From NCBI GenBank assembly GCA_039586795.1, contig JBDHJS010000001.1, forward strand, positions 48,507 through 112,506: DNA of 64,000 nt, given 5' to 3'. Of the stretch, positions 21,777 to 57,939 are shown in pieces (position 1 is the stretch's first letter; each line of letters begins with the position of its first letter). The position numbers and the translations under genes were made by a program. This DNA is from Gemmatimonadota bacterium (GTDB lineage Bacteria > Gemmatimonadota > Gemmatimonadetes > Palauibacterales > KS3-K002). The notes under the pieces were generated by a model. The model did not search any database, was not told the origin of the DNA, and saw only the letters and a program-made list of their open reading frames with translations.

Positions 21777-21803
21777 GGACGCGCAGCTGACAGTCAAAGA
21801 ACA

Positions 21804-21852: not shown

Positions 21853-21881
21853 CTCCCTACCCTTCACCCCCTACGCCCTAC
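21846..21881 (-). repeat. right arm of inverted repeat; GTAG-repeat element 3' of the phosphoribosyltransferase gene
   Basis: CCCCCTACTCCCTACCCTTCACCCCCTACGCCC is the reverse complement of the 21737-21776 arm; abuts the stop codon at 21878. Confidence 0.55.
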
Positions 21882-22426: not shown

Positions 22427-22594
22427 GCTCGCTCCTATTGTTAGAATGAAGTCGAAGATTGCCGGTTTGTAAGAGGCCAGTCAACAGATACGAAATACCC
22501 TCCCCCTGTTGGAGCGCTCGAGCATCCACTATTTTGCAGGTGTCTTCGGTGTCTCTTCGCGACACGATCTTGTAGGGGACGGGAGAGTGGTGTT

Positions 22595-34410: not shown

Positions 34411-34442
34411 CCTACGAAAACAAACCGCTAGGAGAACGACCG

Positions 34443-35537
34443 ATGCCCGGAATCACACGACGCTCCTTTTTCAGGAATAGCATCCTAGCTGGCGCCGGCG
34501 CCGCCGTCTGGCAGAGACTCACCCCATCCGCCCAGGCGAGCGCGCCCGCCCCGACGTTTGGCCGAAAGTCAGCCACCACGCCGATGGTCGTCACAAGCCA
34601 TCCGAACGACACCGGGCGCCGGGCGCTGGAGATCGCCTGGGAGATCCTTGCGGATGGTGGTACTGCGCTGGATGCGGTCGAGAAGGCGACGAACCACATC
34701 GAGTTGGACCCGAACGACTGGAGCGTAGGGTATGGTGGCCTTCCCAACGAGCGCGGTGTGGTACAACTCGACGCTTCGATCATGGACGGCAAAACATACA
34801 GCGCCGGATCGGTCGCATCTCTGGAGAACATCGTGCATCCATCATCGGTGGCGCGACTGGTTATGGAGCGCACCGACCACGTGATGTTGGTGGGCCCCGG
34901 CGCTCTCGAGTTCGCCACGTCCTGGGGCTTCGAGGAGCAAGAGCTGCTCACAGAACGGGCGCGGGAGCGTTGGCTGCAGTGGCGTGAAGAACACAGCGAG
35001 CGGGACGACTACGGTCCGCCCGACCATGTCAAGACGGGCAGCGACGAGCGCGGAGCTTCCCTCCCCGGTAGCGATCCCGAGACGTATGGGACGGTTAACG
35101 TGCTGGCGGTCGACAACAACGGTGATGTCGCCGGGATCACGAGCACCAGCGGTTTGTCGTGGAAGATCCACGGCCGTATCGGCGATTCGCCAATCATCGG
35201 CGCCGGTCTCTATGTGGACAACGATGTCGGCGCCGCCGGCGCCACCGGTCGCGGCGAAGACGTGATCAAGGCCTGCTCGTCGTACTACATCGTCATGCGG
35301 ATGCGTGAGGGTCGGTCACCGCAGGAGGCGTGCGAAGACGCGCTCCACTACATCGCCGACCGCTACCGGTCGGTGGGGCTGGACTACCTCCCGGGCGAGA
35401 AGTTCGTGGCAATGAACCGGGACGGCGAGGTAGGCTGCGCCCAGACGTTCGGGCGGAATGCCCCGAGGATGACGGTGGCAGGCGGATCCGGGATCGAGGT
35501 TTATTCCGGGGAGACGGTCTTCAGCCGGGAAGACTGA
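34443..35537 (+). CDS. Tat-exported asparaginase-2 family Ntn hydrolase (isoaspartyl peptidase/glycosylasparaginase-like)
   Basis: Twin-arginine signal (TRRSFFRNSILAGAGAAVW) from the ATG at 34443 with AGGAGAA RBS; Ntn-hydrolase motifs GTVNVLAVDNNGDVAGITSTSG and GAGLYVDNDVGAAGATGRGE. Confidence 0.75.
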   Translation: MPGITRRSFFRNSILAGAGAAVWQRLTPSAQASAPAPTFGRKSATTPMVVTSHPNDTGRRALEIAWEILADGGTALDAVEKATNHIELDPNDWSVGYGGLPNERGVVQLDASIMDGKTYSAGSVASLENIVHPSSVARLVMERTDHVMLVGPGALEFATSWGFEEQELLTERARERWLQWREEHSERDDYGPPDHVKTGSDERGASLPGSDPETYGTVNVLAVDNNGDVAGITSTSGLSWKIHGRIGDSPIIGAGLYVDNDVGAAGATGRGEDVIKACSSYYIVMRMREGRSPQEACEDALHYIADRYRSVGLDYLPGEKFVAMNRDGEVGCAQTFGRNAPRMTVAGGSGIEVYSGETVFSRED

Positions 35538-41358: not shown

Positions 41359-42348
41359 CTAGCCCCCGACGACGGACTCCGCGAAGATCTCGACCGGCTC
41401 GACTATCGCATCCATCGGACTGAACTTCCATACTAGCACTTCGTCATCGCGTTCGTGCGCGTTCGACGTGATGATCCGACCCGGCATCCTCAGCCGGAAA
41501 TGGATCTCCGTGCTGCCCGCAACGTTCAGACCGTCCAGCTTGTCATCGATGAAGTCGCCAAGCCTGTCCGCCTCGTCATCGTAGATCTCGGCGAGCATGG
41601 CCCTGAGGAATTCTTCATCAGCGTCCGGGTAGCTGCGGCGCACGATGCGGGTCGCCTGCCTGGCTGTCCGGTCGACAACCTGCTCGAGCATCCGATCCTC
41701 CTCCTCGCCGCTGAGCTCGAATAGGCCCTGGTCGATAGCGGCCCACGCCTGCCCTCTAGCAGTACCTATGATCTCAGCGACGGCCTCATCCGAGAGATCC
41801 GGGTATTCCGTCACGACTCGCGCTTCGACGAGGCTCATCATGTATTCGACGAGAGCATCGAGGGCGTTCTCCCATTCGAAGCTCTCTCGATAGGTGAATG
41901 ACGTCGCGTCGCCGACACGGCCTGTCTCGACCTTTACCGTGTTCCAGAAGTGAACTTCGCCCAGCCTGACGTACCCGACTTTCGTGTCTACGTTGGCCCT
42001 GGTGGCGCCGGCAAAGTGCATGCTACGAGTGACATCTTCCCAGCCGGACAGGTTCCTGACACGAGTCTGGCGTGTGAACACCTCGGTGGTGTCCGTGCCG
42101 TCCACTTCGATCTCGTGGGCCCAACCGCGCTGGCCCGTGACGACACCCGTGACTTCTTGAAACTCGCCGATCGAGATTTCGAATCCCGGGCTGTCGGCAT
42201 CTGAAACAACCATCTTCTCGCTGCGAACACCACTGCCATCGGCATTCAGGGTGGTCTCTACCGTGTACTCGATGCAGCCGCCCAAGCCGAAGGCCGCAAA
42301 CGCCAACCCGGCAAGACCGACACGTTTTCCGCTCTTTATCCACTTCAT
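41359..42348 (-). CDS. hypothetical lipoprotein downstream of the ECF sigma/anti-sigma pair
   Basis: Start at internal Met (MKWIKSGKRV) with GAGGTGA RBS, verified as CAT at 42346-42348; lipobox GLGGC. Confidence 0.55.
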   Translation of the reverse strand: MKWIKSGKRVGLAGLAFAAFGLGGCIEYTVETTLNADGSGVRSEKMVVSDADSPGFEISIGEFQEVTGVVTGQRGWAHEIEVDGTDTTEVFTRQTRVRNLSGWEDVTRSMHFAGATRANVDTKVGYVRLGEVHFWNTVKVETGRVGDATSFTYRESFEWENALDALVEYMMSLVEARVVTEYPDLSDEAVAEIIGTARGQAWAAIDQGLFELSGEEEDRMLEQVVDRTARQATRIVRRSYPDADEEFLRAMLAEIYDDEADRLGDFIDDKLDGLNVAGSTEIHFRLRMPGRIITSNAHERDDEVLVWKFSPMDAIVEPVEIFAESVVGG

Positions 42349-42386
42349 GGTCCTCACCTCTCTATGACCAGTACACTCTCGACGTC

Positions 42387-43169
42387 TCACGACCGGACGC
42401 TTGCATCAGATAGCGCAAGCAGTCGAGCCACGGGAATCTGCAACTCTGGATCGAGCGCCAGGGCGTCCAGCAGACGAACCAACTCTGCCACCTGCACACC
42501 ATCCGCACCGCGCAGCTCATCCAGTGCTGTACTCCGGCCGGCAAGCGCCCAGAAAGGGGCACCTGCGAGCAGGCTTTCCAGCCTGGCAGCATCGACGATG
42601 GTCGTGCTGGGAGGCAACCGCTCCAGCATGCTAATCAGTTCAGCGACGCTCACGCTTTCGCGCCGGGAAAGCGTACGCTCCCACGCTCTTCGCCCCACCA
42701 ACCCGGTCGCCACGGACGATGTTGTGACCTCCAGGCTGGCGAGCCGCTGCTCGTGCTCGGCAATTCGTTGCACGAGGAGCTCTTCGCGTCCACGCAGCTC
42801 GCCCAGCTCACCGAGCAAGAAGCCAGTGGCGACAAGGAGCAGCACGGAAGCGGCGGCGAGGGACGGTGCCAACCAGCGCGATGATCCCCAGCCTCGCGGG
42901 CGCGTGATATGTCGTGCCTCCTGAATCGCGATCTCGGCCTGAACCGAATCCCACATCGACGCTACATAGACATCGGGCACCTCCACCTCGAGATCCTCTA
43001 GAGACGGCAAGGCGAGGTGTTCGTGCATGCGCAGAATCGCGTCGCACTCGACGCAGGCCTCGGCGTGAAGCTGAAGCTGGGCCATGCCGTCCTCGCCAAG
43101 TCTTCCCTGTTTGAGCGAGTCCAGCTGGTCCTGGAAAACCTCACAGTCGATGTTCTTCTTCACGTTCAA
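42387..43169 (-). CDS. membrane anti-sigma factor (zinc-finger HxxxCxxC type)
   Basis: HAEACVECDAIL zinc motif, central TM (AAASVLLLVATGFLL); start overlaps the stop of the sigma gene by 4 nt. Confidence 0.65.
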   Translation of the reverse strand: MNVKKNIDCEVFQDQLDSLKQGRLGEDGMAQLQLHAEACVECDAILRMHEHLALPSLEDLEVEVPDVYVASMWDSVQAEIAIQEARHITRPRGWGSSRWLAPSLAAASVLLLVATGFLLGELGELRGREELLVQRIAEHEQRLASLEVTTSSVATGLVGRRAWERTLSRRESVSVAELISMLERLPPSTTIVDAARLESLLAGAPFWALAGRSTALDELRGADGVQVAELVRLLDALALDPELQIPVARLLALSDASVRS

Positions 43170-43792
43170 TTCTCCGTGCTGCTGAGCGCCGCGGCCAGCC
43201 GCTTGCGCGCGAAATGTAGCGTTGCCCTGAGCGTGCCATTCTTGATTCCGAGCTCGCGCGCCACGTCCTTCTGCTCTCTCTGCTCCATATCAACCCTCAC
43301 GAAAACCTGGCGCTGGCTCTCGCTCAACTCGTCGAGCGCGACCAACAGGCGCTGGTGGAACTCGCGACGCTCGAGCTCCTCTTCTGGCCCAATATCTACG
43401 GAGGCGATCTCAAGTATGCCCATTTGCTCGTCATCGTTGGGGGTCATTTCGCGTTTGACCCAAGCTTTGCGCAGGTGACTGAGACAGCCGTTCCGGTGGA
43501 CGGTGAGGAGCCAGCCGCGGAAGGAGCGATCCGGGTCGTAGCTGTCGATCCGGCTGTGGACCCTGACCCACGTTTCCTGTGTCAGGTCGCGTGCCCACTC
43601 CCAATCCGCGGTGTAGCGGTAGGCGACGGCGATCAGCGTCCGGGTCAGCGACTCGACCAGGGTCCGAAATGCCCGCTGATCTCCGCCCTTCACGGCTACC
43701 GCGAGTGCTCTCAGCTGCTTCTCGTCCAAGCGCGATTTCCTCCGTCGTATTCGCGCCAATGCGCTTCCTCTTGGTATACGCAACAACCACAA
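43166..43792 (-). CDS. RNA polymerase sigma-70 factor, ECF subfamily
   Basis: Region 2 (DLTQETWVRVH) and region 4 HTH (QRQVFVRVDMEQREQKDVARELGIKNGTLRATLHFARKRL). Confidence 0.85.
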   Translation of the reverse strand: MWLLRIPRGSALARIRRRKSRLDEKQLRALAVAVKGGDQRAFRTLVESLTRTLIAVAYRYTADWEWARDLTQETWVRVHSRIDSYDPDRSFRGWLLTVHRNGCLSHLRKAWVKREMTPNDDEQMGILEIASVDIGPEEELERREFHQRLLVALDELSESQRQVFVRVDMEQREQKDVARELGIKNGTLRATLHFARKRLAAALSSTEN

Positions 43793-43885
43793 GATGTGCT
43801 TATGGGAAAGAATCGGAAATCGTGATTGGAAATAGGAACTGTTATCGGGATTCGCGAGACCGGGATCCTGAACTGGGGAATAAAA

Positions 43886-43919
43886 GACGCCGCCGGCCTT
43901 CCCTCAGCCCGGCGGCGTC
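43886..43919 (-). terminator. rho-independent terminator of the sigma/anti-sigma/PDZ operon
   Basis: 11-bp perfect stem GACGCCGCCGG/CCGGCGGCGTC, 12-nt loop, followed on the minus strand by TTTTATTCC; 20 nt after the PDZ gene stop. Confidence 0.55.
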
Positions 43920-43938
43920 TCTTCTTGTTGATTCCCGA

Positions 43939-44892
43939 CTAAGGTTCGCGGGTGCGTATTCCGAAGGCGCCGCCGAAGAAGTTCTCAGGGACCTTTCCGG
44001 TCACGGTTCGCGACCGTTTCTGCCGGTAGATCTGGAACGTGACCTCTTCATCTTCCTCGTAGGAACGGAGGATGCGCATCGCGTGACTAGGGCTCTGTAC
44101 CGCGCGGCCGTCGATCGCCTGAATCACGTCGCCGGCAATGAGGCCCAACTCACTGTCTTCGGGAGCGCTGAGGACCAGCAGGCCTTCGTCTGTGCCAAAG
44201 TACTCGCCGAGATCCGGATTGAGCTCGACAAGCTCTAATCCCGGGACGCGCTCGCCGATGGCGATGGCGAAATTGCGGGGCGCCTGGATCTGAACCTCGG
44301 GAAGTTCGCGCAGGCGGTATGACAGCGTGCGGAACCGATCGCTCATCGAGTCGTTGAATTCGCTGGTCCAGCCGATGGCGTAACCCTCAAAATCACCAAC
44401 GACCAACTCCGCGGTGTGCTCGTCCCCGTCACGCCGGTACTTGACGGTAACCGTGTCGCCCATCTCCAGCTCCCGGGCAAGCGCCGATAGCCGCTGTCCC
44501 GGACCGGAGAGCTCCTGACCCGGAGCGCCTTCCAGGTCGTAGTCCTCGAATCCCTCGAGCACGCTGTTGCCGTCGAGCTCGATGATGATATCGCCGGCGC
44601 GAATGCCTGCCTTGTCGGCGGGGCCATCCTCGCTCACGTCATCGATCAACGCGCCGTAACGGTCGGTCTCCGGGTTGGCTTCGGTGTGGATGTAGACGCC
44701 CAGCCGAGCCCGCTGCCCGAAGTAGAAGACGTTGCGCCCGGCATCGCCCAGGCGGGGAGCGACATAAACGCCGCCCACGTTGACGCGGGGGCAAACGCAG
44801 TCCTGATCTCTGTCTTCATCCTGCGCTTGCGCCGGCACCGACGTCGCCGTGGCTATCAGCGCTCCCACGAGTAGAAACTGTACCCACCTCAT
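43939..44892 (-). CDS. secreted PDZ-domain protein (two PDZ domains)
   Basis: Signal peptide from the internal Met (MRWVQFLL) with AGGAGG RBS, verified as CAT at 44890-44892; PDZ signatures GIRAGDIIIELDGNSV and GLIAGDVIQAIDGRAV. Confidence 0.7.
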   Translation of the reverse strand: MRWVQFLLVGALIATATSVPAQAQDEDRDQDCVCPRVNVGGVYVAPRLGDAGRNVFYFGQRARLGVYIHTEANPETDRYGALIDDVSEDGPADKAGIRAGDIIIELDGNSVLEGFEDYDLEGAPGQELSGPGQRLSALARELEMGDTVTVKYRRDGDEHTAELVVGDFEGYAIGWTSEFNDSMSDRFRTLSYRLRELPEVQIQAPRNFAIAIGERVPGLELVELNPDLGEYFGTDEGLLVLSAPEDSELGLIAGDVIQAIDGRAVQSPSHAMRILRSYEEDEEVTFQIYRQKRSRTVTGKVPENFFGGAFGIRTREP

Positions 44893-44951
44893 CTCGTTCT
44901 GCCTCCTGTCATGTATGCGCTTCATACTTGACCCTGTGTTCGTCTCTCGGC

Positions 44952-45635
44952 CTATCGCCAGACCGAAGTGGATGTTTGAACCGGTGTGTCCACCGGTCGC
45001 GCTTCACCTAACTGGATGCCGACAAGGGTCTCAAGCGTCGCAGTGCGCTCGTTCCACAGATTGACAAGGACGCGGCGGTCAACGCCGAGCTGGCGGCTTT
45101 CATGGATCATGCCGTCGAGAATCAGGATCCGATCCTCGAGCGCGGAAACGGCGATCGCCGTCGGCGCGTCGTAGACGCGGTACTGCGTCGGGTACGTTTG
45201 GAGAAGTGTTTCAAGCTCACGCGAGCGGTTGATGTACAGCTCGAGGTCGGGAGTCGCTTCGGCCACCCGGCCCTCCTCAACCGGGGCAACGGTTCCGTCC
45301 ACGACGGGACCCGGTGTAATCGGTTCGCCGCCACGCAGCAAGATGAAGCCGGTCAACGCGGCTGCTGCAGCGAGCCCAACCGTTCCGGCGCCCCACCAGC
45401 GACGCTTTCGCCGCTGGCTCACATCGGCGGCAACGTTCGTCCACAAGTCTCGCGGCGGCGTGAACGCGGGTAGCGCCTTCAGTTCCGCCCTGACTCTGAA
45501 GAGGCGCTCCAGTTCGCGCCGGCAATCCTCGCACGACTCCAGATGCGTCTGAGCATGCGCCGACCCCTCACCATCTCTCTCGGCCAGCAGTTCGTGCATC
45601 TCCAGATGTCGCAAGTTTACCATCAGTCCAACCAC
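44952..45635 (-). CDS. membrane anti-sigma factor (zinc-finger HxxxCxxC type)
   Basis: HLESCEDCRREL motif, TM (TVGLAAAAALTGFILL); immediately downstream of and overlapping the ECF sigma gene. Confidence 0.6.
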   Translation of the reverse strand: MVGLMVNLRHLEMHELLAERDGEGSAHAQTHLESCEDCRRELERLFRVRAELKALPAFTPPRDLWTNVAADVSQRRKRRWWGAGTVGLAAAAALTGFILLRGGEPITPGPVVDGTVAPVEEGRVAEATPDLELYINRSRELETLLQTYPTQYRVYDAPTAIAVSALEDRILILDGMIHESRQLGVDRRVLVNLWNERTATLETLVGIQLGEARPVDTPVQTSTSVWR

Positions 45636-46159
45636 TCCCGCAGACGTTTGTGCGCTCTCGATAGCTGTGACTTCGAGAAGCTGGCTGTCTTGCCCATCAT
45701 CTCGCCAATCTCTTCGTGCGTGTAGCCTTCCACGTCATGCAGCCAGAGCACCGAACGGGTCACCGGAGTCAAACGCCCCAGGGCGGCCTCCAGATCGATC
45801 GGTCCCGTCGGCTCCGGTGGATTCGTGCCGATCAATTCCAAGCTAATCACCTCGCCAGAGACCGTGCGTCGCGAACGGTTCCGTTCGCGACGCAGCAGCA
45901 TGAGCGCCTTGCTGACCGCCACCTGGCGGATCCAGCCCCAGAGGGAGCCGTCACCGCGATAGCGCCTGATGGACCGACACACCTCGACAAACGTGTCCTG
46001 CAGCACATCTTCCGCATCCTCTTCGTTGCCACAGATTCGGCGCCCCAGGTTGTAGACCTGGGTTCGATAGGCGCGGTAGACGCTCTCCAGGGCCTCGAGG
46101 TCCCCAGCCCGGGCGCGCGCCACCAGGGCATCGGCCAGCACTAAAGCATCGCTGCTCAT
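45623..46159 (-). CDS. RNA polymerase sigma-70 factor, ECF subfamily
   Basis: Region 2 (DVLQDTFVEV) and region 4 (VLWLHDVEGYTHEEIGEMMGKTASFSKSQLSRAHKRL). Confidence 0.85.
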   Translation of the reverse strand: MSSDALVLADALVARARAGDLEALESVYRAYRTQVYNLGRRICGNEEDAEDVLQDTFVEVCRSIRRYRGDGSLWGWIRQVAVSKALMLLRRERNRSRRTVSGEVISLELIGTNPPEPTGPIDLEAALGRLTPVTRSVLWLHDVEGYTHEEIGEMMGKTASFSKSQLSRAHKRLREWLD

Positions 46160-46261
46160 TCCACCCTGTATAGATGCGTGAAGGGCCCAAACCGTCGCCC
46201 CTATATAGGTGAAGTTTCGCCCTATGTCCCGAGCACCTAGTTTTTAGGGGTCCCAAGCCCT

Positions 46262-46402
46262 GACCGGGGGGATTCCGGGTTTCGTGGGTTACAAGGCTCG
46301 GGGATTCGGGGGGAATCGGGGATTGCTTCGCAGGCGGTCCAGGTTTCCCCGGATAATCCCAGAATCTCGTAAGCCCCTAATCCCAGAATCCCCGAATCTT
46401 CA
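46262..46402. repeat. cluster of CGAATCCCC/GGGGATTCG repeat units in both orientations in a 290-bp divergent intergenic region
   Basis: GGGGGGATTCCGGG, CGGGGATTCGGGGGGAATCGGGGATTG, AATCTCGTAAGCCCCTAATCCCAGAATCCCCGAATC. Confidence 0.45.
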
Positions 46403-46451
46403 GGGCGTGTGACCTTCGCGACCGTTCATCCCCCGACGGGAGGGCCGTCAA

Positions 46452-48368
46452 ATGGGTCTCGACGCCAAAGCCGAGCGCGAGCCGGAAGCCATCCGGGAAT
46501 TCACCCGCAGCATGCTGAAGGATCTTCGCGCGCTGGAGCGGATCATCGACGAGGGGATGATCGAGTCCGGCGTGCGACGAATCGGCATGGAGCAGGAGAT
46601 GTTCCTCGTGGACAGCGGATACCGGCCGGCCCCGGTCGCATTGGAGGTCTTGGCCAGGTTGGGCGAGGGCGGAGCGTATACGACCGAGCTGGCGCGGTTC
46701 AACCTGGAGGTGAACCTGGCGCCGCTGGACCTGCAGGCCGACTGTTTCTCACAAATGGAGAACGAGCTCTCGCGGCACGTGGAGGAAGTGCGTGAGGCGG
46801 CGCGCAAGGAGGGCGCCGAGATCTTATTGACGGGAATTCTTCCCAGTCTGGCCAAGTCCGATCTCAGCCTCGAGAACATCACGCCCAAGGATCGCTACTA
46901 CGCCCTGAACGAGTCGATGACGCGCCTGCGGGGCGGGCCGATGCAGCTACAGATCCTGGGGATTGATGAGGTGAACATCGAACACGACTCGGTGATGTTG
47001 GAGGCATGTAACACCAGTTGTCAGGTCCATTTGCAGGTCGCGGCGGACGAGTTCGCCCGTTTTCACAATGCCGCCCAGGCGGTACTCGGCCCGGTGTTGG
47101 CAGCCTGCACCAACTCTCCGCTGTTGTTCGGTCGTCGGCTGTGGTACGAGACGCGCATCGCGCTTTTTCAGCAGTCGGTGGATACGCGGAGCGCGCTGTC
47201 GCACCTTCGCGACCAGACTCCCCGGGTCCGATTCGGCGATGCCTGGGTGAAGGATTCGGTATTGGAGCTCTTTCAGGAGGATATCGTCCGCTTCCGAGCA
47301 TTGATGCCGATGGTTCCGGACAAAGACCCGTTGGCCGAATTGGACGAGGGCCGAATCCCCGAACTGTCGGCACTACAGTTGCATAACAGCACGGTGTACC
47401 GCTGGAACCGTCCCTGCTACGGGCTGTCGAACGGGACGCCGCATCTGCGCATCGAGTGTCGGGCGATTCCGGCCGGCCCAACAATCGCTGATGAGGTGGC
47501 GAATGCCGCGCTCTGGATCGGAGCGGTTATCGGTATCGTCAACGAGTTCGGCGATGTGACCGAATACCTGGAGTTCGATGACGCTAAGGCGAATTTCCTA
47601 GCCGCCGCGCGTCGCGGCCTGAACGCCGTCCTCACCTGGACGAACGATGATTCCGTGGATGCGACGGAACTGGTCATCGAGCGGCTGATTCCCATCGCCC
47701 GGGCCGGCCTGGAAGAAGTCGGCGTGAGCGGTGGAGACATAGAAAAGTATCTGGGAGTAGTACGTGACCGAGTCGATTCGGGCGGCACCGGAGCGCAGTG
47801 GATGCTACGATCGCTGCAGAACATGAAGGACGTGGGGACGCGCCCGGAGCGGCTGGCGGCGCTGGCCGGCGCCATAGCCGAACGACAATACAGCGGGAAG
47901 CTAGGGCACGAATGGAAGCCAGCCGAGCTGGCCGAAGCCGGAGGCTGGCGTAGAAATTACCTGCGGGTCGATCAGTACATGACAACCGAACTGTTTACGG
48001 TTCACGAGGATGAGTTGATCGACCTGGTTGCGTTCGTGATGGACAAGAAGAACATACGCCACGTTCTCGTGGAGGATGACGATCACCAGATCGTTGGTCT
48101 GGTATCGTATCGATCGTTGATCAGGCTACTGACGCGGGGACAGATCGGCGAACCGGGGATCACCGTTCCCGTGAAGGACGTCATGGTCAAGGATCCGATC
48201 ACGATATCGCCAGAGACGCCGACCACGGAGGCGATCGAGCTGATGCACAAGCATCGCTGCTCGGTTCTGCCGGTCGTGAAGGGTGGCAAGTTGGTTGGCA
48301 CCGTCGGCGAGCGCGATTTCATGCCTATAGCCCGCCATTTCCTGGAAGAGAAATTGAGGGAAGAGTGA
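46452..48368 (+). CDS. glutamate-cysteine ligase family 2 (GCS2, carboxylate-amine ligase) fused to C-terminal tandem CBS domains
   Basis: GCS2-type core (~500 aa; MEQEMFLVD, ECRAIPAGP) followed by a CBS pair (residues ~505-630); GGGAGGG RBS. Confidence 0.7.
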   Translation: MGLDAKAEREPEAIREFTRSMLKDLRALERIIDEGMIESGVRRIGMEQEMFLVDSGYRPAPVALEVLARLGEGGAYTTELARFNLEVNLAPLDLQADCFSQMENELSRHVEEVREAARKEGAEILLTGILPSLAKSDLSLENITPKDRYYALNESMTRLRGGPMQLQILGIDEVNIEHDSVMLEACNTSCQVHLQVAADEFARFHNAAQAVLGPVLAACTNSPLLFGRRLWYETRIALFQQSVDTRSALSHLRDQTPRVRFGDAWVKDSVLELFQEDIVRFRALMPMVPDKDPLAELDEGRIPELSALQLHNSTVYRWNRPCYGLSNGTPHLRIECRAIPAGPTIADEVANAALWIGAVIGIVNEFGDVTEYLEFDDAKANFLAAARRGLNAVLTWTNDDSVDATELVIERLIPIARAGLEEVGVSGGDIEKYLGVVRDRVDSGGTGAQWMLRSLQNMKDVGTRPERLAALAGAIAERQYSGKLGHEWKPAELAEAGGWRRNYLRVDQYMTTELFTVHEDELIDLVAFVMDKKNIRHVLVEDDDHQIVGLVSYRSLIRLLTRGQIGEPGITVPVKDVMVKDPITISPETPTTEAIELMHKHRCSVLPVVKGGKLVGTVGERDFMPIARHFLEEKLREE

Positions 48369-49537
48369 CGTTAGAGCCGGCTCAATCGGGCGGTGCGGCG
48401 TTGGAGGAAAGCGAGGAGCAGAAGCGCGTATTAGGTGTCGTGGTCGGTGACCAGCCCGGTCCGACCCTTGTTTGCATAGGCGGTGTCCACGGAAACGAAC
48501 CGGAGGGTATCGCCGCATTGGAGCGCGTCTTCGAATCGTTGTCAGAGCATCCTCAGCAGCTGCACGGTGAATTCGTAGGATTGGCAGGCAACCTTCCGGC
48601 GCTGTCTAAAGGACTTCGCTACATCGATGTGGACCTGAACCGCCGCTTCCTTTATGGGAAGGCGAATACAGATGCGGCGGACCCAACGAGCGAAGATCGA
48701 CAGCGCAACGAGCTGGCCCGCGAGTTGGAGTCCATCTTCTGCAGGGCAACAGATGGCGTGTTCGTCATAGACCTGCACACAACATCTGGTAACAGCGTGC
48801 CGTTCGTCGTGATGGGAGACACGCTGGCCAATCGTTCATTCGCCTGGAACTTCCCTATCCCTTTCACACTAGGACTCGAAGAGCATCTGGACGGCACACT
48901 GAGCGAATATCTAACCATCCTGGGGCACACGTCGTTGACGATCGAGGCCGGCCAACAGAACTCTTCCGCCGCGGTGGACAACGCCGAGGCGGCGATCTGG
49001 CTCGGCCTGGCCGCGGCAGGTCTGATTCAAGAGCATAACGCCCCGCGTGTGCGTCGTTCGCGCGAGATACTGGCGCGCACGGCAAGCTCTCTACCACGGG
49101 TGATGGAGGTATACTACCGGCAGCCTATCCTCCCGGATGACGATTTCAGAATGGAGCCGGGCTTCGACAACTTCGATAGGATCGCGCCGGGGCGACTCCT
49201 GGCCCGCAATCGAAGCGGTGAGATCCGCTCGCGCTGGTACGGACGCTTACTGATGCCGCTGTATCAGCAACAGGGTAGCGATGGCTTCTTCGTCGTCCGC
49301 GAGCTTCGCACCGAGTGGCTGGCGCTCTCAGCCGTGCTCCGGCGTCTCCACATTGATGCGATCGTTCACTGGCTACCCGGTGTGACGCGCCACCCGACAA
49401 GACCTGAAACTCTGGTCGTGGACCGTCGGGTTGCCCGCTGGTATTCGGTGGAGGTGTTGCACCTACTCGGCTTCCGTCGCAGGCGCTCGATTGGAGGTGT
49501 TCTGATGGTCAGCCGCCGGAGGCGGGGAGGAAACTGA
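48365..49537 (+). CDS. succinylglutamate desuccinylase/aspartoacylase (AstE/AspA) family zinc deacylase
   Basis: GGVHGNEPEG zinc-binding motif, HTTSG; GTG start overlapping the upstream stop (GTGA). Confidence 0.75.
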   Translation: MTLEPAQSGGAALEESEEQKRVLGVVVGDQPGPTLVCIGGVHGNEPEGIAALERVFESLSEHPQQLHGEFVGLAGNLPALSKGLRYIDVDLNRRFLYGKANTDAADPTSEDRQRNELARELESIFCRATDGVFVIDLHTTSGNSVPFVVMGDTLANRSFAWNFPIPFTLGLEEHLDGTLSEYLTILGHTSLTIEAGQQNSSAAVDNAEAAIWLGLAAAGLIQEHNAPRVRRSREILARTASSLPRVMEVYYRQPILPDDDFRMEPGFDNFDRIAPGRLLARNRSGEIRSRWYGRLLMPLYQQQGSDGFFVVRELRTEWLALSAVLRRLHIDAIVHWLPGVTRHPTRPETLVVDRRVARWYSVEVLHLLGFRRRRSIGGVLMVSRRRRGGN

Positions 49538-49610: not shown

Positions 49611-52600
49611 TTAGAAGCCGGGCGAGAAGCCGAACTGCCAGAACCAACCTTTGCTGGGCCGGCTGAGCGGGCGCACGAAGTCGACCTCCAACAGCAAGAC
49701 GCCGAACAGGTTGATTCGGGAGGCGATGCCGACGGAAGCGATAGGGCTCCAGGGGTCGATGTTCCCGCCGATCCTCGCTGCCGCGGACTGGCTCCACCAC
49801 GCCGCACCGACGTCGAAGAAGAAAGCCATGGTGAACGGCGGCAGACTGCCCGGAGCACGCCAACCGAAAACTTGCGGGATCGGCATGCGCAGCTCGAAGT
49901 TCGCCATCAGCATCCTGCTGCCGAACAACTGATCGTATACCGGGCAACCGGCATTGTTATTCGGGTCAAAGAAGCTGTCGTTCCCCTGGAGCTGATCGGC
50001 GCACTCGCGACTGGAGAAGCTACCAGGGTCGTAACCCCGGAGTAGCTGCTGGTAGCCGATGAACAATGGGGTGAGCCTGAAGTCCTCCCCGTCTTTGCCG
50101 AAGCGGCCGAACTGGAGCAAACGCCCGGCGAAAGTGATGTTGCGGAACGGCATGAAGTAGCGGCGGTAGTCAAACAGGGTACCGATGTAATTCAACGACC
50201 CACCGGTGGGCGCTACCTCGACGCGGTAGCGCTGTCCAAGCACGGGCCCCGTGAAGCCGAAGATGGTATTGTCGTAGACCATCGCCGCCGTACCCGACGC
50301 CAGGTTCAGGGCCGGCTGGTTGCAGAACGGATCAGTTGGATCATCGCTACAAGACGGAAAATCCTGTCTCTCATCACCGATCTGCTGGCCGCTGGCCGTG
50401 AACGTGCGAGTTCTGATCTCCGTCTCGAACGAGATGTTGCGAGCCCTGGCGGTGAACTCGATCCGCTGCGCGCGGCTGAGTGGATACGTAACCAGAGCTT
50501 GTATTTCGCGGCTGGTCTGCCGGAAACGCAGCTCCTGTTCTACGAGGTTACCGTTGTCGTCGATGCCGACGGCGAAATTCTGCGTCACGATCGGAAATTG
50601 AGATACGGCGGCCCCCCAATTCCAACGGGACTTGCGGTTCTCGTAGCTAACCAGCGCCGCGATGTCCTTGATGCTGCCGTTGACCTGGAGCATGGTGGCC
50701 AGGTTGTGCTCACCGAGAATGTCGCTCCAGAACAGGGAGGTACCGCCGCCAACGAACGTGCCGTAGCGATCGCTCCCGACAGCTACGTTGGGTGGCGCGA
50801 TGTAGTCCAGCGAAAGACCAGCCTTGTAAGGTGCCGACTCGAAATCGTACGCCGTCCTCGGCAACCCGAGGTCAGGGTTGTTGACCAGGGCCATCACATC
50901 ACCCACAGCCCGATCGGCGGGCGGAAGAACCGCCGGGCTGATGGCGCTGATCGGACGAGCTATCGGCTCCCCTGCGAGGACCTCCTCAGACTCGATGGAA
51001 TAGAGGGAGTACTGATTGCCCTCGAAGGCGCTGAATACCATGCGCTGCCCGTTCGCGGATAGCGTGATGGCTGGACTCAGGTCGGTTATACCGCTGACAC
51101 CCGTCGTGAGGTGGGTGATCTGGCGAATCTCGCCGCTGTCAAGCCAGACTCTGTATACGTTGCTGATACCGTTCTGGTCCGACAGAAAGAAAACGCTCTC
51201 ACCGTCAGCCGCCCACTGGGGATTGATGTTCTTCGCACCATCGAAGCCCGGGACGTGGGTGACGGTACCGGTCTCAATATCGAGCAGGCCGAGTTCGTAG
51301 GCCCCCCACTCCAGTCGTTCCATGTTCGTGGAAAAACGGTCCGTGACGAAGACGACGTAACGTCCGTCAGGGGACCAGACGGGCTGGAGGTCAGCGTAGG
51401 GATCTTCTGTGAGCCGCGTGACCTCACGGGTCTCAACGTCGATGTAGAAGAGGTCCATCAGGCCACCGACGCTGGCCGAGAAGACGATCTTACTGCCATC
51501 GGCAGAAAACGTGGGGTTGAAGATCTCACCTACTTCGTCCACGCGATGCTCGACAATGGTCTTGCCGCGTTCGGTGTCTATCACGGTCAGGCTTGGAACG
51601 CCTCTTACGACACCGGCAAAGACGAATTCCCTGCTATTCGGATGGAAACTGCCCGCCGAGTTGATGAATTGAAGACTCTCGTAGTGCGGGTCTGACGCGG
51701 TCTTGACGAGCTTCTTTCCAATCTCGCCGGTCTCGGCATCGGCCGAGAACATCTCGATATGGAAGTAGTCCTTCTCCGTGAGAAAGACGAGATTGGAACC
51801 ATCGGGACTGATCGCCGGCGCTACGTTGTAGAAACCGCTTCCCTGCTGCTTCGAGATGAGCATGCGCCCATAGTCGAGCGGACCGCCGGTCTCGGACAGA
51901 ACATCTTGATAAGCTTCGTCGATCGCCGCCTGCCAGTCGGCGATCAGCTGATCCGGCGCAATCTCGAGCACCGTAGCAAGGGCGTGCCCCGGATCGCCGG
52001 TCATCGATGCCGCCTTGAGGATTTCTCCGACCGCAGGGTCACCCCAGCGACCGCCGACGTAGGCCCAGAAGGCGTGTCCGTACCGATAGGGATTGTAAAC
52101 CGGGTTATAGAGCTGGGCGTAGGACGGCAGCTTAGCGCGGCGAGCCGCGTCGTGCATCCACATGGCGGTCAGCGTGTACTCTGGACCGAGGGACAGGTAC
52201 TCGGCCATCCCCTCGATGAACCAGAGGGGCATAGCGAGGGCGATCGGAAAACCACCGCCGACCGCGGAGCGCGAGGCCGTCGTGATGTCGAACTGGAAGG
52301 CGTGAACGAGCTCGTGGCCGAGCACGTGGTCGGTCTCTTTGAGCGAGCCGGCCATCGGCAAGACGACACGTCGTTTGAACGCCTCGGTCACACCCCCGGT
52401 GCCTTCATCGATAGCTCCCATGAGAGCCGTCGTCTGCTCGAAATCGGGGTGGTCCGCATACAGAATGATTATCTGGCGGCCGCTGAGCTCGTGATTGAAG
52501 ATCCGACTGAGGCGGGCATACCAGCGCTCCGCCATGCGTCCCGCTTCCTCAACGGCTTCACGCGCCTCAGGGTAGTAGTGGATATCGAAATGTTCGGTCT

Positions 52601-52745
52601 TCAGTACCTGGAAATCGAAGTTCTCGTACTGGACCTTGTTGCGACCGAAGTACTGAGCTTCGGCCGGCTGCGGCAGTAGTGTTGACCCGAGCGTCGCTGA
52701 TACCAGAATTCCACCCGCTACCACTCGGGCACGATCAAGTCGCAT
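49611..52745 (-). CDS. large outer-membrane-associated protein: N-terminal HExxH metallopeptidase-like domain, TolB-like PD40 beta-propeller repeats, C-terminal Omp85-like beta-barrel
   Basis: Signal peptide; HELVHAF zinc-like motif; at least five xSPDG repeats (ISPDGSNLVF, FSADGSKIVF, WSPDGRYVVF, WAADGESVFF); C-terminus alternates hydrophobic residues and ends in Phe (FGFSPGF); GGAGGT RBS. Confidence 0.6.
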   Translation of the reverse strand: MRLDRARVVAGGILVSATLGSTLLPQPAEAQYFGRNKVQYENFDFQVLKTEHFDIHYYPEAREAVEEAGRMAERWYARLSRIFNHELSGRQIIILYADHPDFEQTTALMGAIDEGTGGVTEAFKRRVVLPMAGSLKETDHVLGHELVHAFQFDITTASRSAVGGGFPIALAMPLWFIEGMAEYLSLGPEYTLTAMWMHDAARRAKLPSYAQLYNPVYNPYRYGHAFWAYVGGRWGDPAVGEILKAASMTGDPGHALATVLEIAPDQLIADWQAAIDEAYQDVLSETGGPLDYGRMLISKQQGSGFYNVAPAISPDGSNLVFLTEKDYFHIEMFSADAETGEIGKKLVKTASDPHYESLQFINSAGSFHPNSREFVFAGVVRGVPSLTVIDTERGKTIVEHRVDEVGEIFNPTFSADGSKIVFSASVGGLMDLFYIDVETREVTRLTEDPYADLQPVWSPDGRYVVFVTDRFSTNMERLEWGAYELGLLDIETGTVTHVPGFDGAKNINPQWAADGESVFFLSDQNGISNVYRVWLDSGEIRQITHLTTGVSGITDLSPAITLSANGQRMVFSAFEGNQYSLYSIESEEVLAGEPIARPISAISPAVLPPADRAVGDVMALVNNPDLGLPRTAYDFESAPYKAGLSLDYIAPPNVAVGSDRYGTFVGGGTSLFWSDILGEHNLATMLQVNGSIKDIAALVSYENRKSRWNWGAAVSQFPIVTQNFAVGIDDNGNLVEQELRFRQTSREIQALVTYPLSRAQRIEFTARARNISFETEIRTRTFTASGQQIGDERQDFPSCSDDPTDPFCNQPALNLASGTAAMVYDNTIFGFTGPVLGQRYRVEVAPTGGSLNYIGTLFDYRRYFMPFRNITFAGRLLQFGRFGKDGEDFRLTPLFIGYQQLLRGYDPGSFSSRECADQLQGNDSFFDPNNNAGCPVYDQLFGSRMLMANFELRMPIPQVFGWRAPGSLPPFTMAFFFDVGAAWWSQSAAARIGGNIDPWSPIASVGIASRINLFGVLLLEVDFVRPLSRPSKGWFWQFGFSPGF

Positions 52746-53112: not shown

Positions 53113-54324
53113 TTGTTAAGACGCGGCTCGCTGAGAGTGTGGACACGACATCCGAGCGCCGGGGACGACAGCCGCAAGAGGCGTCAGGTCGCCATGCCTA
53201 AGGTCAGGCGACATATGTCCGGGCGACTCATCGCTGGCGAGCCCATGACACCGTTGGCCGAGCCGGTACTGACATCGCACCCGATGACGCTGGCCGAGGC
53301 GCTAAGACCGTTCTTTTTCCGGTTCTGTTTGGCGATCGCCTATTTCCTCGTCGTGTTCCTGATCGGCATGACCGGCTACATGATCATCGAGCGGTGGGCA
53401 TGGCATGACGCGCTGTATATGGCGGTGACCACCGTAACGTCGGTCGGCTACATGGAGGTGTACGCGCTATCCGAAGTAGGCCGGACCTTCACGATGGGGC
53501 TCATATTCCTGGGCGTCTCTGGGCTCGGGGTCTGGTGGGCCTTAACAACCGCGCTGATCGTGGAACTCGACCTCGGTGGCGTTCTGCGGAGACGTCGAAT
53601 CATGAAGAACATCGAACAGCTATCCGAGCACTTCATCGTCTGCGGCGCCGGTCGCATGGGGCGTGTGGTGATCGGTGAAATGGTGGCCGCCGGCCGTTCA
53701 TTCGTGGTCATAGAAAACCAGCCGGCCCGCATCGCGCAGGTGCAAGAGAGCTATCCGAACTTGCTGGTCATCGAAGCCGATGCGACCCGCGAGCAGACAT
53801 TGCTCAGCGCCGGCGTCGAACGCGCCAGCGGACTGGCGACTTGTCTGGCGGATGATGCCGACAACCTGCTGGTGTGTCTCACAGCGCGAGAATTGAACGA
53901 CGTGATCCCAACGGTCGCGCGCGCCTACAACGAGGAATCGGTGGAGAAGCTCCGCCGAGCCGGCGCCGACCATGTCATCTCGCCCAACCAGACAGGAGGC
54001 GTCCGCATGGCCTTCACGCTGCTGAGGCCAGCGGTGATCAGCTTCCTGGATGCGGCGATAACCGATGCAGGAATCGAAATGCGGCTCGAACAGGCGTCGA
54101 TCCCAGCGAGCTCGCACCTGGTCGGTCAGACACTGGCCGAGGCTCAGATTCCACAGCAGACAGGACTGATCGTCCTCGCTCTGCGCCGAGGCATCGCCGG
54201 ACCGCCGCTGTACAACCCAGGTCCCGAGACGCACCTCGAGGCGGGTGATGTGATGATACTCATCGGCGCATCGGATCAGGTTGAGCGACTCCGGAACTAT
54301 GCGGAAGTCGAGGTGACTCTGTAG
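53113..54324 (+). CDS. potassium-channel-like protein with TrkA-N/TrkA-C (RCK) cytoplasmic domain; non-canonical selectivity filter
   Basis: Two TM helices plus pore helix; filter TSVGYME in place of TVGYGD; FIVCGAGRMGRVV Rossmann motif of the RCK domain; start codon uncertain (several in-frame Met). Confidence 0.65.
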   Translation: MLRRGSLRVWTRHPSAGDDSRKRRQVAMPKVRRHMSGRLIAGEPMTPLAEPVLTSHPMTLAEALRPFFFRFCLAIAYFLVVFLIGMTGYMIIERWAWHDALYMAVTTVTSVGYMEVYALSEVGRTFTMGLIFLGVSGLGVWWALTTALIVELDLGGVLRRRRIMKNIEQLSEHFIVCGAGRMGRVVIGEMVAAGRSFVVIENQPARIAQVQESYPNLLVIEADATREQTLLSAGVERASGLATCLADDADNLLVCLTARELNDVIPTVARAYNEESVEKLRRAGADHVISPNQTGGVRMAFTLLRPAVISFLDAAITDAGIEMRLEQASIPASSHLVGQTLAEAQIPQQTGLIVLALRRGIAGPPLYNPGPETHLEAGDVMILIGASDQVERLRNYAEVEVTL

Positions 54325-54390: not shown

Positions 54391-56808
<2,418 letters not shown>

Positions 56809-56812
<4 letters not shown>

Positions 56813-57939
56813 GCTCGTGATACCCGTCCGGCCGCAACCCGGTATTCGGTCAAGCCGTCGCCCATGAGAGCGAACTCGTTGGGCTTCGGCGACGTCACCA
56901 AGACCTGACCCCATTCTTCCGCCGCGAGTAGATCCACCACCCGCTCCGATCGCAGTGGGTCGAGCTCGGCGAAAACATCATCGAGCATGACGATCGGTTT
57001 TCTCCCGCGAGTCGCACGCAGGGTATCGGCTTCCACCATCCGCAACGCGACCGCGGCCGTGCGTTGTTGCCCCGCAGAGCCGAAACTGCGGAGTTGTACT
57101 GGCTCGGCGCTGCCGTCAACCCAAAAACTTAGATCGTCTCTGTGCGGTCCGGCGAGCGTCAAACCGCGTCTTCGCTCTCGGTCGACCAGGCGCTCTAGCT
57201 CGAGACGGAACGAATCCGCCCACCGATCTCGAGATGGTGGACTACCATCATCGTCAGGTCTCGGAAGGGACGGTGCATACTCCAGCTTCGCTGCCTGGCC
57301 ACCGGATACCGCTTCGTAGTAGCGGGCGAAGCCCGCCTGTTGGGCCGCGACCCATCGCGCACGGGCCTCGACGATCGCGCTCCCCTCTTCGACCAACCCC
57401 CTGTTCCAGGCCGCCAGCTCCTCTGCGTTCGCTCCGTCGCGCAGGAGCCCATTGCGCTGCGAGAGGATATGCCGGTAGCGCTGCAAGGCCGCTAGGTAGC
57501 CCGGCTCAACCAGCGAAAGCGTGATGTTAAGGAAACGCCGTCGCGCACCGGGGCCACCAGCCACGATCTCCACATCGCTGGCAGTGAAGACGATTGCGCC
57601 GACCTTCCCGATGGCTTCGCCCACGCGAGCCGGCTCCCGAGCGTCCAGCGTGACCTTCTTACGGCGACCTTCACGTGTGTATGCGGCCGCCACCTCCACC
57701 TCGCCACCACCCCCCATGAGATGCCCTACCACACGAAAGTGCTCGCCGCCGAAAGTGACCAACTGGTCGTCGCGAGCGCCTCGGAATGAGCGGAATATCT
57801 CGAGGTAGTAGACAGCCTCCAGCAGGTTTGTCTTGCCCTGACCGTTGTCACCGATCAGCGCCGCGCCGCGCTCCGGAAACTCCACGGTCTCGTCATCGAA
57901 ATTCCGGAAATGCCGGAGCCTGATCCGCTGGAGAAACAC
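56809..57939 (-). CDS. recF: DNA replication and repair protein RecF
   Basis: Walker A GDNGQGKTNLLEA, SMC-like signature, Walker B; 376 aa. Confidence 0.9.

Follow-up and report, generated by a model that had tools for sequence, protein, structure and literature searches.

What does a carboxylate-amine ligase make when its gene is joined to that of an amidohydrolase, and do the two enzymes act on the same bond? The question is raised by a two-gene operon, ligase then hydrolase, on the forward strand of a contig from a Gemmatimonadota bacterium (GCA_039586795.1, contig JBDHJS010000001.1). It was analysed within the window, that is, the whole stretch of 64,000 nucleotides, and its features are collected in Table 1. 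Members of the GCL/GCS2 superfamily are usually annotated as 'glutamate-cysteine ligase' whatever their actual activity, and the source databases name the relatives of this ligase 'gamma-glutamylcysteine synthetase'. A literature search on combinations of GCS2, CBS, AstE and amidoligase returned nothing relevant.

Table 1. Features of the ligase-hydrolase operon and its upstream region, in positions of the window.
Feature	Position	Strand	Description
Imperfect palindrome, ~168 nt	46247..46414	.	GGGGATTC/GAATCCCC units; in the 292-nt promoter/leader region
Shine-Dalgarno-like GGAGG	46439..46443	+	8 nt 5' of the ligase ATG; read from the sequence
Ligase gene	46452..48368	+	638 aa; predicted GCL-fold carboxylate-amine ligase with C-terminal CBS pair
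Ligase catalytic core	46452..47936	+	Residues 1 to ~495 (about 490 aa)
CBS pair (Bateman module)	47949..48359	+	Residues ~500-636 of the ligase
GAGG Shine-Dalgarno of the hydrolase gene	48356..48359	+	Inside the 3' end of the ligase ORF, with 5 nt between it and the GTG; read from the sequence
GTGA overlap of ligase stop and hydrolase start	48365..48368	+	Read from the sequence
Hydrolase gene	48365..49537	+	390 aa; predicted AstE/AspA-family zinc amidohydrolase, GTG start
AstE/AspA catalytic domain	48455..48964	+	Residues 31-200; Pfam match
Hydrolase C-terminal extension, ~75 aa	49310..49534	+	Motifs WLPGV and HLLGFRR, basic tail; conserved in alignment A2

The two enzymes and their families

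The first gene encodes a predicted ATP-dependent carboxylate-amine ligase of the GCL/GCS2 superfamily. Its product matches Pfam PF04107 with 50.1 bits (gathering cutoff 21, E 3.3e-13). Searched alone against PDB sequences, the core gave no match, and the other PDB sequence searches were dominated by CBS matches, so the core was compared by fold search instead, in which it adopts a GCL/GS-type fold. In an alignment of 28 family members the residues E47, E49, E79, N84, E86, N88, Q191, H193, R235, R320, R333, E335 and R337 are invariant. The metal/ATP-binding catalytic set (E-x-E, a further Glu, His and R-x-E-x-R), whose roles are assigned from those known in GshA and GS, is complete, and the alignment shows the predicted active site to be intact.

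The curated subtypes are far from this protein. It scores 28.7 against NCBIfam NF010041 (cutoff 332), 26.8 against NF010043 (cutoff 409), 22 against TIGR02050 (YbdK; cutoff 176.4) and 21.3 against TIGR03444 (EgtA; cutoff 370.8), which for the YbdK-type models amounts to 22-29 bits with cutoffs of 176-332, and no plant-type or proteobacterial GshA model in NCBIfam matches it. Identity to the solved YbdK, plant GCL and yeast GCL structures is 14-19%: only 16-19% to the YbdK/GCS2 ligases of E. coli and Salmonella (PDB 1R8G, 1TT4), and 14-19% to plant/alpha-proteobacterial GCL (GSH1, PDB 2GWC), yeast GCL (3IG5) and mycobacterial EgtA. The core is ~130 aa longer than YbdK and holds an extra helical region, and YbdK has neither the CBS pair nor the conserved AstE partner of the ligase. 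Unlike the GCL and EgtA systems, the ligase loci are without a conserved gshB or egtBCDE context. The family comprises 816 clusters at 50% identity (E <= 1e-30), and by these scores the ligase is placed in a distinct, large uncharacterised clade that none of the tested curated models for GshA, EgtA and YbdK covers. The first-pass annotation had set the gene pair apart from the textbook gshA, egtA and ybdK contexts, and HMM subtyping separates the ligase from these enzymes too, as it remains under the cutoffs of all three and no tight clustering with bona fide GshA was seen. The domain calls made at that stage (GCS2-type core, tandem CBS, AstE/AspA hydrolase) likewise agree with the Pfam and fold matches.

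The C-terminal part of the ligase is recognised by Pfam as CBS in two stretches (E 1.8e-24), and PDB CBS pairs match it both by sequence and by fold. The second CBS retains a ribose-binding motif of the G-x-x-x-x-x-D type (GTVGERD), and in the first one Ser replaces the Asp of this motif (GLVSYRS), both read from the sequence. The GTVGERD motif is suggestive, and only that, of adenosyl-ligand binding by the CBS pair.

The second gene encodes a predicted cytoplasmic zinc amidohydrolase of the AstE/AspA (M14-like) family, which matches Pfam PF24827 with 72 bits (cutoff 25) and, in Foldseek, DoeB, AstE, AspA, ACY3 and CphZ (E 4e-14 to 1e-7). In alignment A2, of 22 hydrolase partners, the following residues are invariant: H42, E45 and H138 as zinc ligands, R85, N92 and R93 for carboxylate binding, and E194 as the catalytic residue. 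From their spacing and from what is known of aspartoacylase, we take them to be equivalent to its H21/E24/H116, R63/N70/R71 and E178; this predicted active site, too, is intact. The hydrolase shares the Pfam catalytic domain, zinc ligands, catalytic Glu and Arg/Asn/Arg clamp with AstE, aspartoacylase/ACY3 and DoeB/EutE, along with the fold (Foldseek E of about 1e-14 to 1e-9), but its identity to them is 15-23% and it has its own conserved C-terminal module (Table 1). It stays under the cutoffs of the NCBIfam equivalogs TIGR03242 (AstE; 43.3 vs 305.65), NF003706 (47 vs 170) and NF002601 (aspartoacylase; 58.9 vs 180), and would thus be neither AstE proper nor aspartoacylase proper; no ast or doe operon context is found around it. 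The C-terminal module has no match in a Pfam search and is missing from the ~340-aa partners of Longimicrobiales, and in many loci the hydrolase HMM matches stop at about position 315.

Linkage of the two genes

The GTGA overlap between ligase stop and hydrolase start, already described in the first-pass annotation, was confirmed by reading the sequence, which places a GAGG 5 nt upstream, giving a predicted translational coupling of the hydrolase to the ligase. The arrangement recurs in other genomes. Partners were detected by HMM search of six-frame ORFs, as tblastn with a single AstE query misses divergent ones (for example in L042), and the clustering of neighbourhoods used a GC3 filter against the long antisense ORFs that are typical of high-GC DNA. 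An AstE gene lies directly downstream of the ligase in 28 of 31 genome loci and in 26 of the 65 loci of a more diverse metagenome sample, so that the two genes are kept as neighbours. The ligases with this neighbour are of 36-87% identity and belong to several phyla, with Planctomycetota and unclassified lineages among them, and AstE is paired also with a CBS-less ligase (36% identity) and with a CBS ligase of 38% identity. The 4-nt NTGA overlap of stop and start is available in 21 related loci of several lineages, and most loci without it have a spacer of 0-30 nt between ligase and AstE. The two enzymes are even found as one protein, either as ligase-CBS-AstE fusions (P0132, P0168 with two members, P0254) or as ligase-AstE fusions without CBS (P0230 on two contigs from two samples, P0231, P0241), which fall in at least six protein clusters at 50% identity. 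No gene besides AstE is conserved in the neighbourhoods of the ligase across lineages, and the module would therefore be complete with two genes.

From this recurrent adjacency, the conserved overlap and the independent fusions, the ligase and the hydrolase are judged to be functionally linked. The link is not obligatory, since each gene also occurs alone. No AstE is present within up to 8 kb in 39 of the 65 diverse metagenome ligase loci; in two loci (L049 and L051) the surrounding synteny is kept and AstE is missing; an 86%-identical ligase orthologue (L001) is followed by a PKD-domain gene and not by AstE; three close homologues of the AstE partner have no ligase within 5 kb; and CBS-less actinobacterial ligases stand alone. 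The earlier description of the pair as 'hard-wired' was therefore right in proposing a functional link and too strong in its wording, given that the hydrolase adjoins a minority of the metagenome ligases. These solitary genes, found in many genomes, are what could be said for inherited synteny alone as the cause of the adjacency, with no shared function. This explanation was already disfavoured and is hardly credible, as independent fusions have appeared both with CBS and lacking it, the pairing persists in different phyla across ligases that are only 36-50% identical, and the 4-nt overlap is conserved.

Candidate chemistry of the pair

The model proposed here, with somewhat less than even confidence, is that the pair would be a make-and-break module for a gamma-glutamyl amino acid (an isopeptide), gated by the CBS pair, its chemistry being modelled on that of characterised relatives. 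To our knowledge, every characterised GCL-fold enzyme works by turning the gamma-carboxylate of glutamate into an activated acyl phosphate. The ligase would do likewise and link the activated group to an amino acid through the alpha-amine of the latter, so that its product would be a gamma-glutamyl amino acid. Such a compound is an N-acyl amino acid, near N-succinyl-glutamate, and could therefore be cleaved by the AstE-like partner, which would split it back into its parts. Between them, the two enzymes would set the level of a small gamma-glutamyl compound, with the CBS pair gating its synthesis by adenine-nucleotide or ionic state.

A precedent for a make-and-break pair is provided by CphZ, a member of the AstE/AspA family that cleaves the isodipeptide beta-Asp-Arg and whose gene is clustered with that of its cyanophycin synthetase (PMC9974463). 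CphZ is a fold match to the hydrolase (8eip/8ein) at ~15% identity. Its ligase partner is the cyanophycin synthetase, of ATP-grasp plus Mur-ligase type and not a GCL, and its substrate is a dipeptide derived from a polymer. The ligase-(CBS)-AstE fusions also resemble, in joining opposing activities, the glutathionylspermidine synthetase/amidase (GspSA), in which an ATP-dependent amide synthetase and an amidase of the same bond form one protein, and differential regulation prevents a futile cycle. This is a functional analogy only and does not imply shared ancestry, since the folds of GspSA (an ATP-grasp synthetase and a CHAP amidase) are unrelated to those of the pair. A ligase and a hydrolase working on the same bond would likewise run a futile cycle unless they were reciprocally regulated, and such regulation is assumed here.

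The fusions fit two sequential steps equally well. In a sequential salvage route, the AstE-like enzyme would remove the N-acetyl or N-succinyl group of an amino acid, which the ligase would then conjugate, so that different bonds would be handled. All characterised AstE, AspA, ACY3 and DoeB enzymes, as far as we know, free an amino acid from a small acyl group on its alpha-amine, which fits this route, as does the match of the hydrolase fold to that family; consecutive enzymes are commonly fused, and gene order and coupling are compatible with it. Nevertheless, a ligase that so often occurs without the hydrolase cannot depend on it for its substrate, and neither an acyltransferase nor a transporter is conserved nearby, which makes this route decidedly unlikely.

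It can also be argued that these lineages use the ligase as nothing more than their gamma-glutamylcysteine ligase, a functional analogue of GshA or EgtA that feeds a low-molecular-weight thiol pathway. The AstE-like enzyme would then serve to recycle gamma-Glu-Cys or some conjugate formed further along, or would take off the glutamyl group as EgtC does. The fold and catalytic set of GCL type and the name given to the relatives in the source databases agree with this reading. Among about 125 loci searched by tblastn, one ligase-CBS-HIT fusion (L041) lies 1.2 kb from egtB-/egtD-like genes; as these recur in no other locus, they were treated as incidental and a link to ergothioneine was set aside. 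In three loci, all from one lineage, the gene right after an AstE-less ligase encodes an OPT oligopeptide transporter, and some members of the OPT family transport glutathione. No gshB-like gene was found among the Pfam-scanned genes of the window (a subset of its ORFs) or in the conserved neighbourhoods, and the ligase is far under every curated GshA and EgtA cutoff. A role in thiol synthesis is thus held to be unlikely.

In Longimicrobiales, the pair stands in a same-strand string formed by a dehydrogenase of the Glu/Leu/Phe/Val type, a nitroreductase-family flavoprotein, the pair itself and SRAP, with an aminotransferase on the opposite strand. This string recalls gamma-glutamylation-dependent catabolism or detoxification of amines, as in the Puu and Ipu pathways, where the ligase would tag an amine, other enzymes would oxidise it and the AstE-like enzyme would free the glutamate. 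Such a scheme is improbable, because the string is conserved at the level of that order only and is missing from the window and from other phyla, and was rejected as pathway context; moreover, no intermediate steps could be accommodated where the two enzymes are directly fused or form a two-gene operon, and the known Puu and Ipu pathways employ GlnA-type ligases. Still less probable would be the reversible modification of a peptide or protein, comparable to PafA/Dop or to the tubulin ligase and carboxypeptidase, in which the ligase would attach a residue at a C-terminus or on the side chain of a glutamate and the M14-like enzyme would remove it.

If the make-and-break model is followed, a wider proposal can be made, which is possible though doubtful: a gamma-glutamyl (iso)dipeptide may constitute a not-yet-described regulated pool in Gemmatimonadota, Planctomycetota, Acidobacteriota and others, serving as an osmolyte, thiol or nitrogen buffer. 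Energy charge or ionic strength would then decide whether the compound is built or degraded, through a self-contained homeostat that consists of the CBS pair and the AstE-like isopeptidase, coupled or fused, and would be the GCL-fold counterpart of GspSA. The ligase clade, which fits no curated subtype tested, carries a regulatory domain of its own and recurs with a hydrolase partner, sometimes fused, extends over hundreds of 50%-identity clusters from uncultured bacteria of soil, sediment, sponge and saline habitats. Identification of the ligase product would correct a widespread misannotation. This product could be a new small gamma-glutamyl metabolite of poorly studied phyla, and the pair could add a further case of a homeostat built from a synthetase and a hydrolase. 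Both the two-gene operon and the fusions offer compact and soluble proteins suited to direct in vitro tests.

Flanking genes and upstream region

Other neighbours of the pair are confined to particular lineages. The trkA-trkH genes are placed directly 5' of the pair in one locus (L045), and a K+ channel gene lies 4.7 kb downstream of it in the window; since these neighbours recur in those lineages only, the evidence for a potassium or osmotic link is too thin and is taken as a hint. A YkuD gene neighbours the pair in two unrelated lineages and in none beyond those two, and a link to peptidoglycan was set aside. A role in anti-phage defence was also rejected, as PADLOC matches neither the ligase nor the hydrolase.

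A scan for consensus promoters and terminators returned nothing above chance. The palindrome upstream of the ligase folds as RNA with -104.7 kcal/mol (z = -3.1). A riboswitch or leader in this region was considered and rejected, because the Rfam search of the palindrome and leader gave no match and the palindrome is variable among the orthologous loci, with L023 keeping part of it and L001 having lost it by deletion. Rather than a conserved leader, the palindrome probably represents a REP-like repeat. Units related to it are also found at 18565-18584 of the window.

Layout and products of the gene pair

The ligase gene (ORF A) encodes a carboxylate-amine ligase of the GCL fold with a C-terminal CBS pair, and the hydrolase gene (ORF B) an AstE/AspA-family zinc amidohydrolase. 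These domain calls of the first-pass annotation are borne out by Pfam: in ORF A, residues 45-267 match GCS2 (PF04107, 50.1 bits) and residues ~504-630 hold two CBS motifs, and in ORF B residues 31-200 match the catalytic domain of the AstE/AspA family (PF24827, 72 bits); the GTGA stop/start overlap that it described is also present, behind a GAGG motif. The G+C content of the window is 59-66%, and it is most closely related to metagenome-assembled genomes of Gemmatimonadota/Longimicrobiales. Upstream, a gap of 292 nt separates the ligase gene from a divergent ECF sigma-factor gene; downstream, a convergent gene ends 73 nt beyond the hydrolase gene, so that the pair is a discrete two-gene operon. 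Two public gene calls on identical DNA disagree on the start of the ORF B equivalent, one using the overlapping GTG (390 aa) and the other a TTG 36 nt downstream (378 aa). In 21 related loci of many lineages the sequence allows a 4-nt NTGA overlap in frame with AstE. This comparison speaks for the GTG at 48365 being the true start, and translational coupling is, judged from sequence, a conserved trait of the pair; loci without this overlap mostly have spacers of 0-30 nt.

Features of the window and of related loci (L-numbers)
Feature	Sequence	Position	Strand	Remark
Ligase gene (ORF A)	window	46452-48368	+	ATG start, 638 aa
Hydrolase gene (ORF B)	window	48365-49537	+	GTG start, 390 aa
GTGA overlap	window	48365-48368	+	ligase stop TGA 48366-48368, hydrolase GTG 48365-48367
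GAGG	window	48356-48359	+	5 nt 5' of hydrolase GTG
GGAGG	window	46439-46443	+	precedes ligase ATG
Hydrolase C-terminal module	window	49310-49534		~75 aa
Imperfect palindrome	window	46247-46414		~168 nt, GGGGATTC/GAATCCCC units
Units related to palindrome	window	18565-18584
ECF sigma-factor region	window	41359-46159	-	ECF genes 43166-43792 and 45623-46159
Two-PDZ protein	window	43939-44925
Convergent gene	window	49611-52745	-	1044 aa
K+ channel gene	window	53113-54324		Ion_trans_2 + TrkA_N/C
Asparaginase_2 gene	window	34377-35537	+	PF01112
Asparaginase_2 gene	window	61848-62939	-	PF01112
M14 carboxypeptidase	window	2749-4479
M24 peptidase	window	31831-33210
Housekeeping genes	window	20471-25057, 54391-57939		rho, gyrA, gyrB, recF-like SMC_N gene
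OPT transporter gene	L054	3213-5291
OPT transporter gene	L055	10031-12109
OPT transporter gene	L059	5724-7700
trkA, trkH, ligase-CBS, AstE	L045	1010-6882		one strand, gaps 0-37 nt
P0230 neighbourhood	L038	5326-11846		38% G+C contig
P0121 neighbourhood	L041	2444-8403
clpS-clpA, AstE homologue	L127	2002-6176
clpS-clpA, AstE homologue	L128	2036-6200
Tandem ligases, AstE	L083	3590-8604
Tandem ligases, AstE	L094	5528-10549

The AF2 model of the ligase is of high confidence (pLDDT 90.2), and an alignment of 28 family members leaves E47, E49, E79, N84, E86, N88, Q191, H193, R235, R320, R333, E335 and R337 invariant, which we take, by comparison with GshA and GS, to be the metal- and ATP-binding set. 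By our own reading of the sequence, the second CBS motif retains the canonical ribose-binding Asp (GTVGERD) and the first lacks it (GLVSYRS), so that the CBS pair is compatible with one putative adenosyl-ligand site. The hydrolase model (pLDDT 84.6) matches the folds of DoeB/EutE, AstE, aspartoacylase, aminoacylase-3 and the cyanophycin dipeptidase CphZ, and the residues invariant among 22 partners (H42, E45, H138, E194, R85, N92 and R93) presumably correspond, by their spacing, to the residues that in aspartoacylase bind zinc, serve as catalytic Glu and form the carboxylate clamp. Both enzymes thus look catalytically competent, and no signal peptide is seen at either N-terminus. The C-terminal module of the hydrolase matches no Pfam family; it bears WLPGV and HLLGFRR motifs and a basic RRRR tail, is kept in many partners and is missing from those of Longimicrobiales (~340 aa). 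Third-position G+C is lower in the hydrolase gene than in the ligase gene (0.69 vs 0.77), and the hydrolase diverges faster, its nearest homologue being 62% identical vs 86-91% for the ligase.

A ligase clade outside the curated subfamilies

Both proteins belong to their superfamilies and fall outside the equivalog models of characterised subfamilies. The ligase scores 28.7 bits against the YbdK-like model NF010041 (cutoff 332), 22 bits against the YbdK model TIGR02050 (cutoff 176.4) and 21.3 bits against the EgtA model TIGR03444 (cutoff 370.8); the NCBIfam models for plant-type and proteobacterial GshA give zero matches, and a PDB sequence search with the 499-aa core gives none at E <= 10. 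By the subtyping proposed in the first-pass annotation, this clade is therefore not covered by any of the curated models tested (GshA, EgtA and YbdK). A GshA/EgtA-like gamma-Glu-Cys ligase serving thiol synthesis would share the GCL fold, and it could account for one egtB/egtD neighbourhood (L041) and for the OPT-family oligopeptide transporter genes found directly after three AstE-less ligase-CBS genes of a single lineage (L054, L055 and L059); this role is nevertheless rather unlikely, given the equivalog scores and the absence of a conserved gshB or egt context in the neighbourhoods compared, which also upholds the earlier view that this is not a textbook GCS2 context.

An exhaustive search of 1.84 billion representative proteins yields 816 ligase clusters at E <= 1e-30, a large and distinct clade that is as yet uncharacterised; where its members have names, these go no further than "CBS domain-containing protein" or "glutamate-cysteine ligase family protein". 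Among the top 150 clusters most join CBS to the core (620-650 aa), a good number consist of the core only (~480-500 aa), and a few carry AstE, HIT or a PNPOx-like domain at the C-terminus. In the HIT variant P0121 (800 aa, 3 cluster members), ligase, CBS and HIT are fused in one protein, whose gene lies near egtB-like (DinB_2 + FGE-sulfatase) and egtD-like (Methyltransf_33) genes; P0232, a separate variant, joins the core to the PNPOx-like domain. In L083 and L094, two divergent ligase-CBS paralogues stand in tandem before an overlapping AstE gene; in L094, the one of the two loci that was aligned, both have the full catalytic residue set. They could represent two successive ligations or a hetero-oligomer.

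Recurrence and limits of the ligase-AstE association

The neighbourhood comparison suggested earlier was made, on GC3-filtered ORFs, in two sets of loci. In species-representative genomes (32 loci, 31 with room downstream), 28 of 31 ligase genes are followed directly by an AstE homologue on their own strand, among them those of Planctomycetota and unclassified bacteria whose ligases are only ~50% identical. Among 80 more diverse metagenome loci (ligases of 44-71% identity), 65 have at least 1.3 kb of downstream sequence; AstE adjoins the ligase in 26 of these and is not found within up to 8 kb in the other 39, absence referring to the examined 5-8 kb and not to the whole genome. AstE presence is patchy over the ligase tree rather than clade-specific. 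Distant ligases are paired too: an AstE gene overlaps the end of a CBS-less ligase (495 aa, 36% identity), and one begins a single base after a ligase of 620 aa (38% identity). Single polypeptides also occur in metagenome assemblies, several seen independently, both as ligase-CBS-AstE (P0132, P0168 with two members, and P0254) and without CBS (P0230, P0231 and P0241); P0230 comes from two samples (two contigs), its surroundings being low in GC and proteobacterium-like. From this recurrent adjacency and the independent fusions, ligase and hydrolase very probably form a functional unit, and the fusions make mere synteny highly improbable. No third partner gene is conserved across lineages among the neighbourhoods compared, and AstE-less loci share no alternative partner. 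Only in Longimicrobiales does the pair stand in a dehydrogenase / unknown / nitroreductase / pair / SRAP string, which holds the one hint of a Puu/Ipu-like catabolism by gamma-glutamylation, a quite unlikely role.

The association has its limits. In L001 a PKD-domain gene comes after an orthologue 86% identical; the gene order nitroreductase-ligase-SRAP is retained in L049 and L051, with no AstE; and actinobacterial core-only ligases stand alone. The 5 kb around each of three close homologues of the AstE partner (48-50% identity, C-terminal module present) hold no ligase. Thus, of the "hard-wired" pairing first described, the coupled genes stand, but the AstE-less loci and lone AstE homologues show that it is not obligatory. 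A hydrolase gene next door is evidently not needed for the ligase to function, and possibly none is needed at all. This frequent independence also makes sequential salvage, in which the ligase would use an amino acid that the hydrolase releases from an N-acyl precursor, unlikely. In L127 and L128, partner homologues with the C-terminal extension lie just downstream of clpS-clpA, with no ligase within 5 kb.

Proposed chemistry and neighbouring genes

Since, to our knowledge, every characterised GCL-fold enzyme (GCLs, GS, PafA) uses ATP to activate the gamma-carboxylate of glutamate, the ligase product would probably be a gamma-glutamyl amide; and since all AstE/AspA enzymes that we know of act only where a free carboxylate stands alpha to the nitrogen of the scissile amide, the amine would probably be an amino acid. 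An amino group is all that separates a gamma-glutamyl amino acid from substrates of the N-succinyl-glutamate type. We tentatively propose that the hydrolase would cleave the gamma-glutamyl amino acid made by the ligase, the pair setting the pool of one small compound, and that the CBS pair would gate the ligase. The closest functional analogue is glutathionylspermidine synthetase/amidase. The AstE-family enzyme CphZ cleaves an isodipeptide and clusters with the ATP-dependent enzyme that makes the bond (PMC9974463). Synthesis and breakdown of one compound by the ligase and the hydrolase would fit the sufficiency of two genes, the dispensability of the hydrolase and the position of the sensor between the catalytic domains in fusions. 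Reversible modification of a protein or peptide is very unlikely, as the ligase is far closer to small-molecule GCLs than to PafA/Dop. No paper on the ligase-CBS-AstE combination was found in the full-text literature; the GCL clade described here, uncharacterised so far, combines a Bateman module with an AstE-like partner that recurs and is sometimes fused. It merits biochemical work for the size of the family, its misleading annotation and the compact form of the system.

Some neighbours hint at function. The trkA and trkH genes of L045 and the K+ channel gene of the window may indicate an osmotic link of the pair; the association with K+ genes does not recur elsewhere among the loci. In L038, P0230 lies between amgK/murU-like genes and a YkuD L,D-transpeptidase gene, and YkuD is also a neighbour in L042, in just these two lineages; a link to the cell wall is possible.

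Between the ECF sigma-factor gene and the ligase gene, the palindrome would fold as RNA at -104.7 kcal/mol (z = -3.1) and has no Rfam match; one orthologous locus keeps it in part and another has lost it, so that it resembles a REP/MITE-like repeat rather than a conserved leader. Both ECF genes are each followed by genes without a Pfam match. In the 1044-aa protein, Tricorn-like/PD40 beta-propellers are joined to a C-terminal Omp85 barrel, an unusual architecture conserved in the nearest relatives. Peptidase genes elsewhere in the window include two for isoaspartyl peptidase/asparaginase. The presence of rho, gyrA, gyrB and the recF-like gene suggests a chromosomal location, possibly close to the replication origin, rather than a mobile element.
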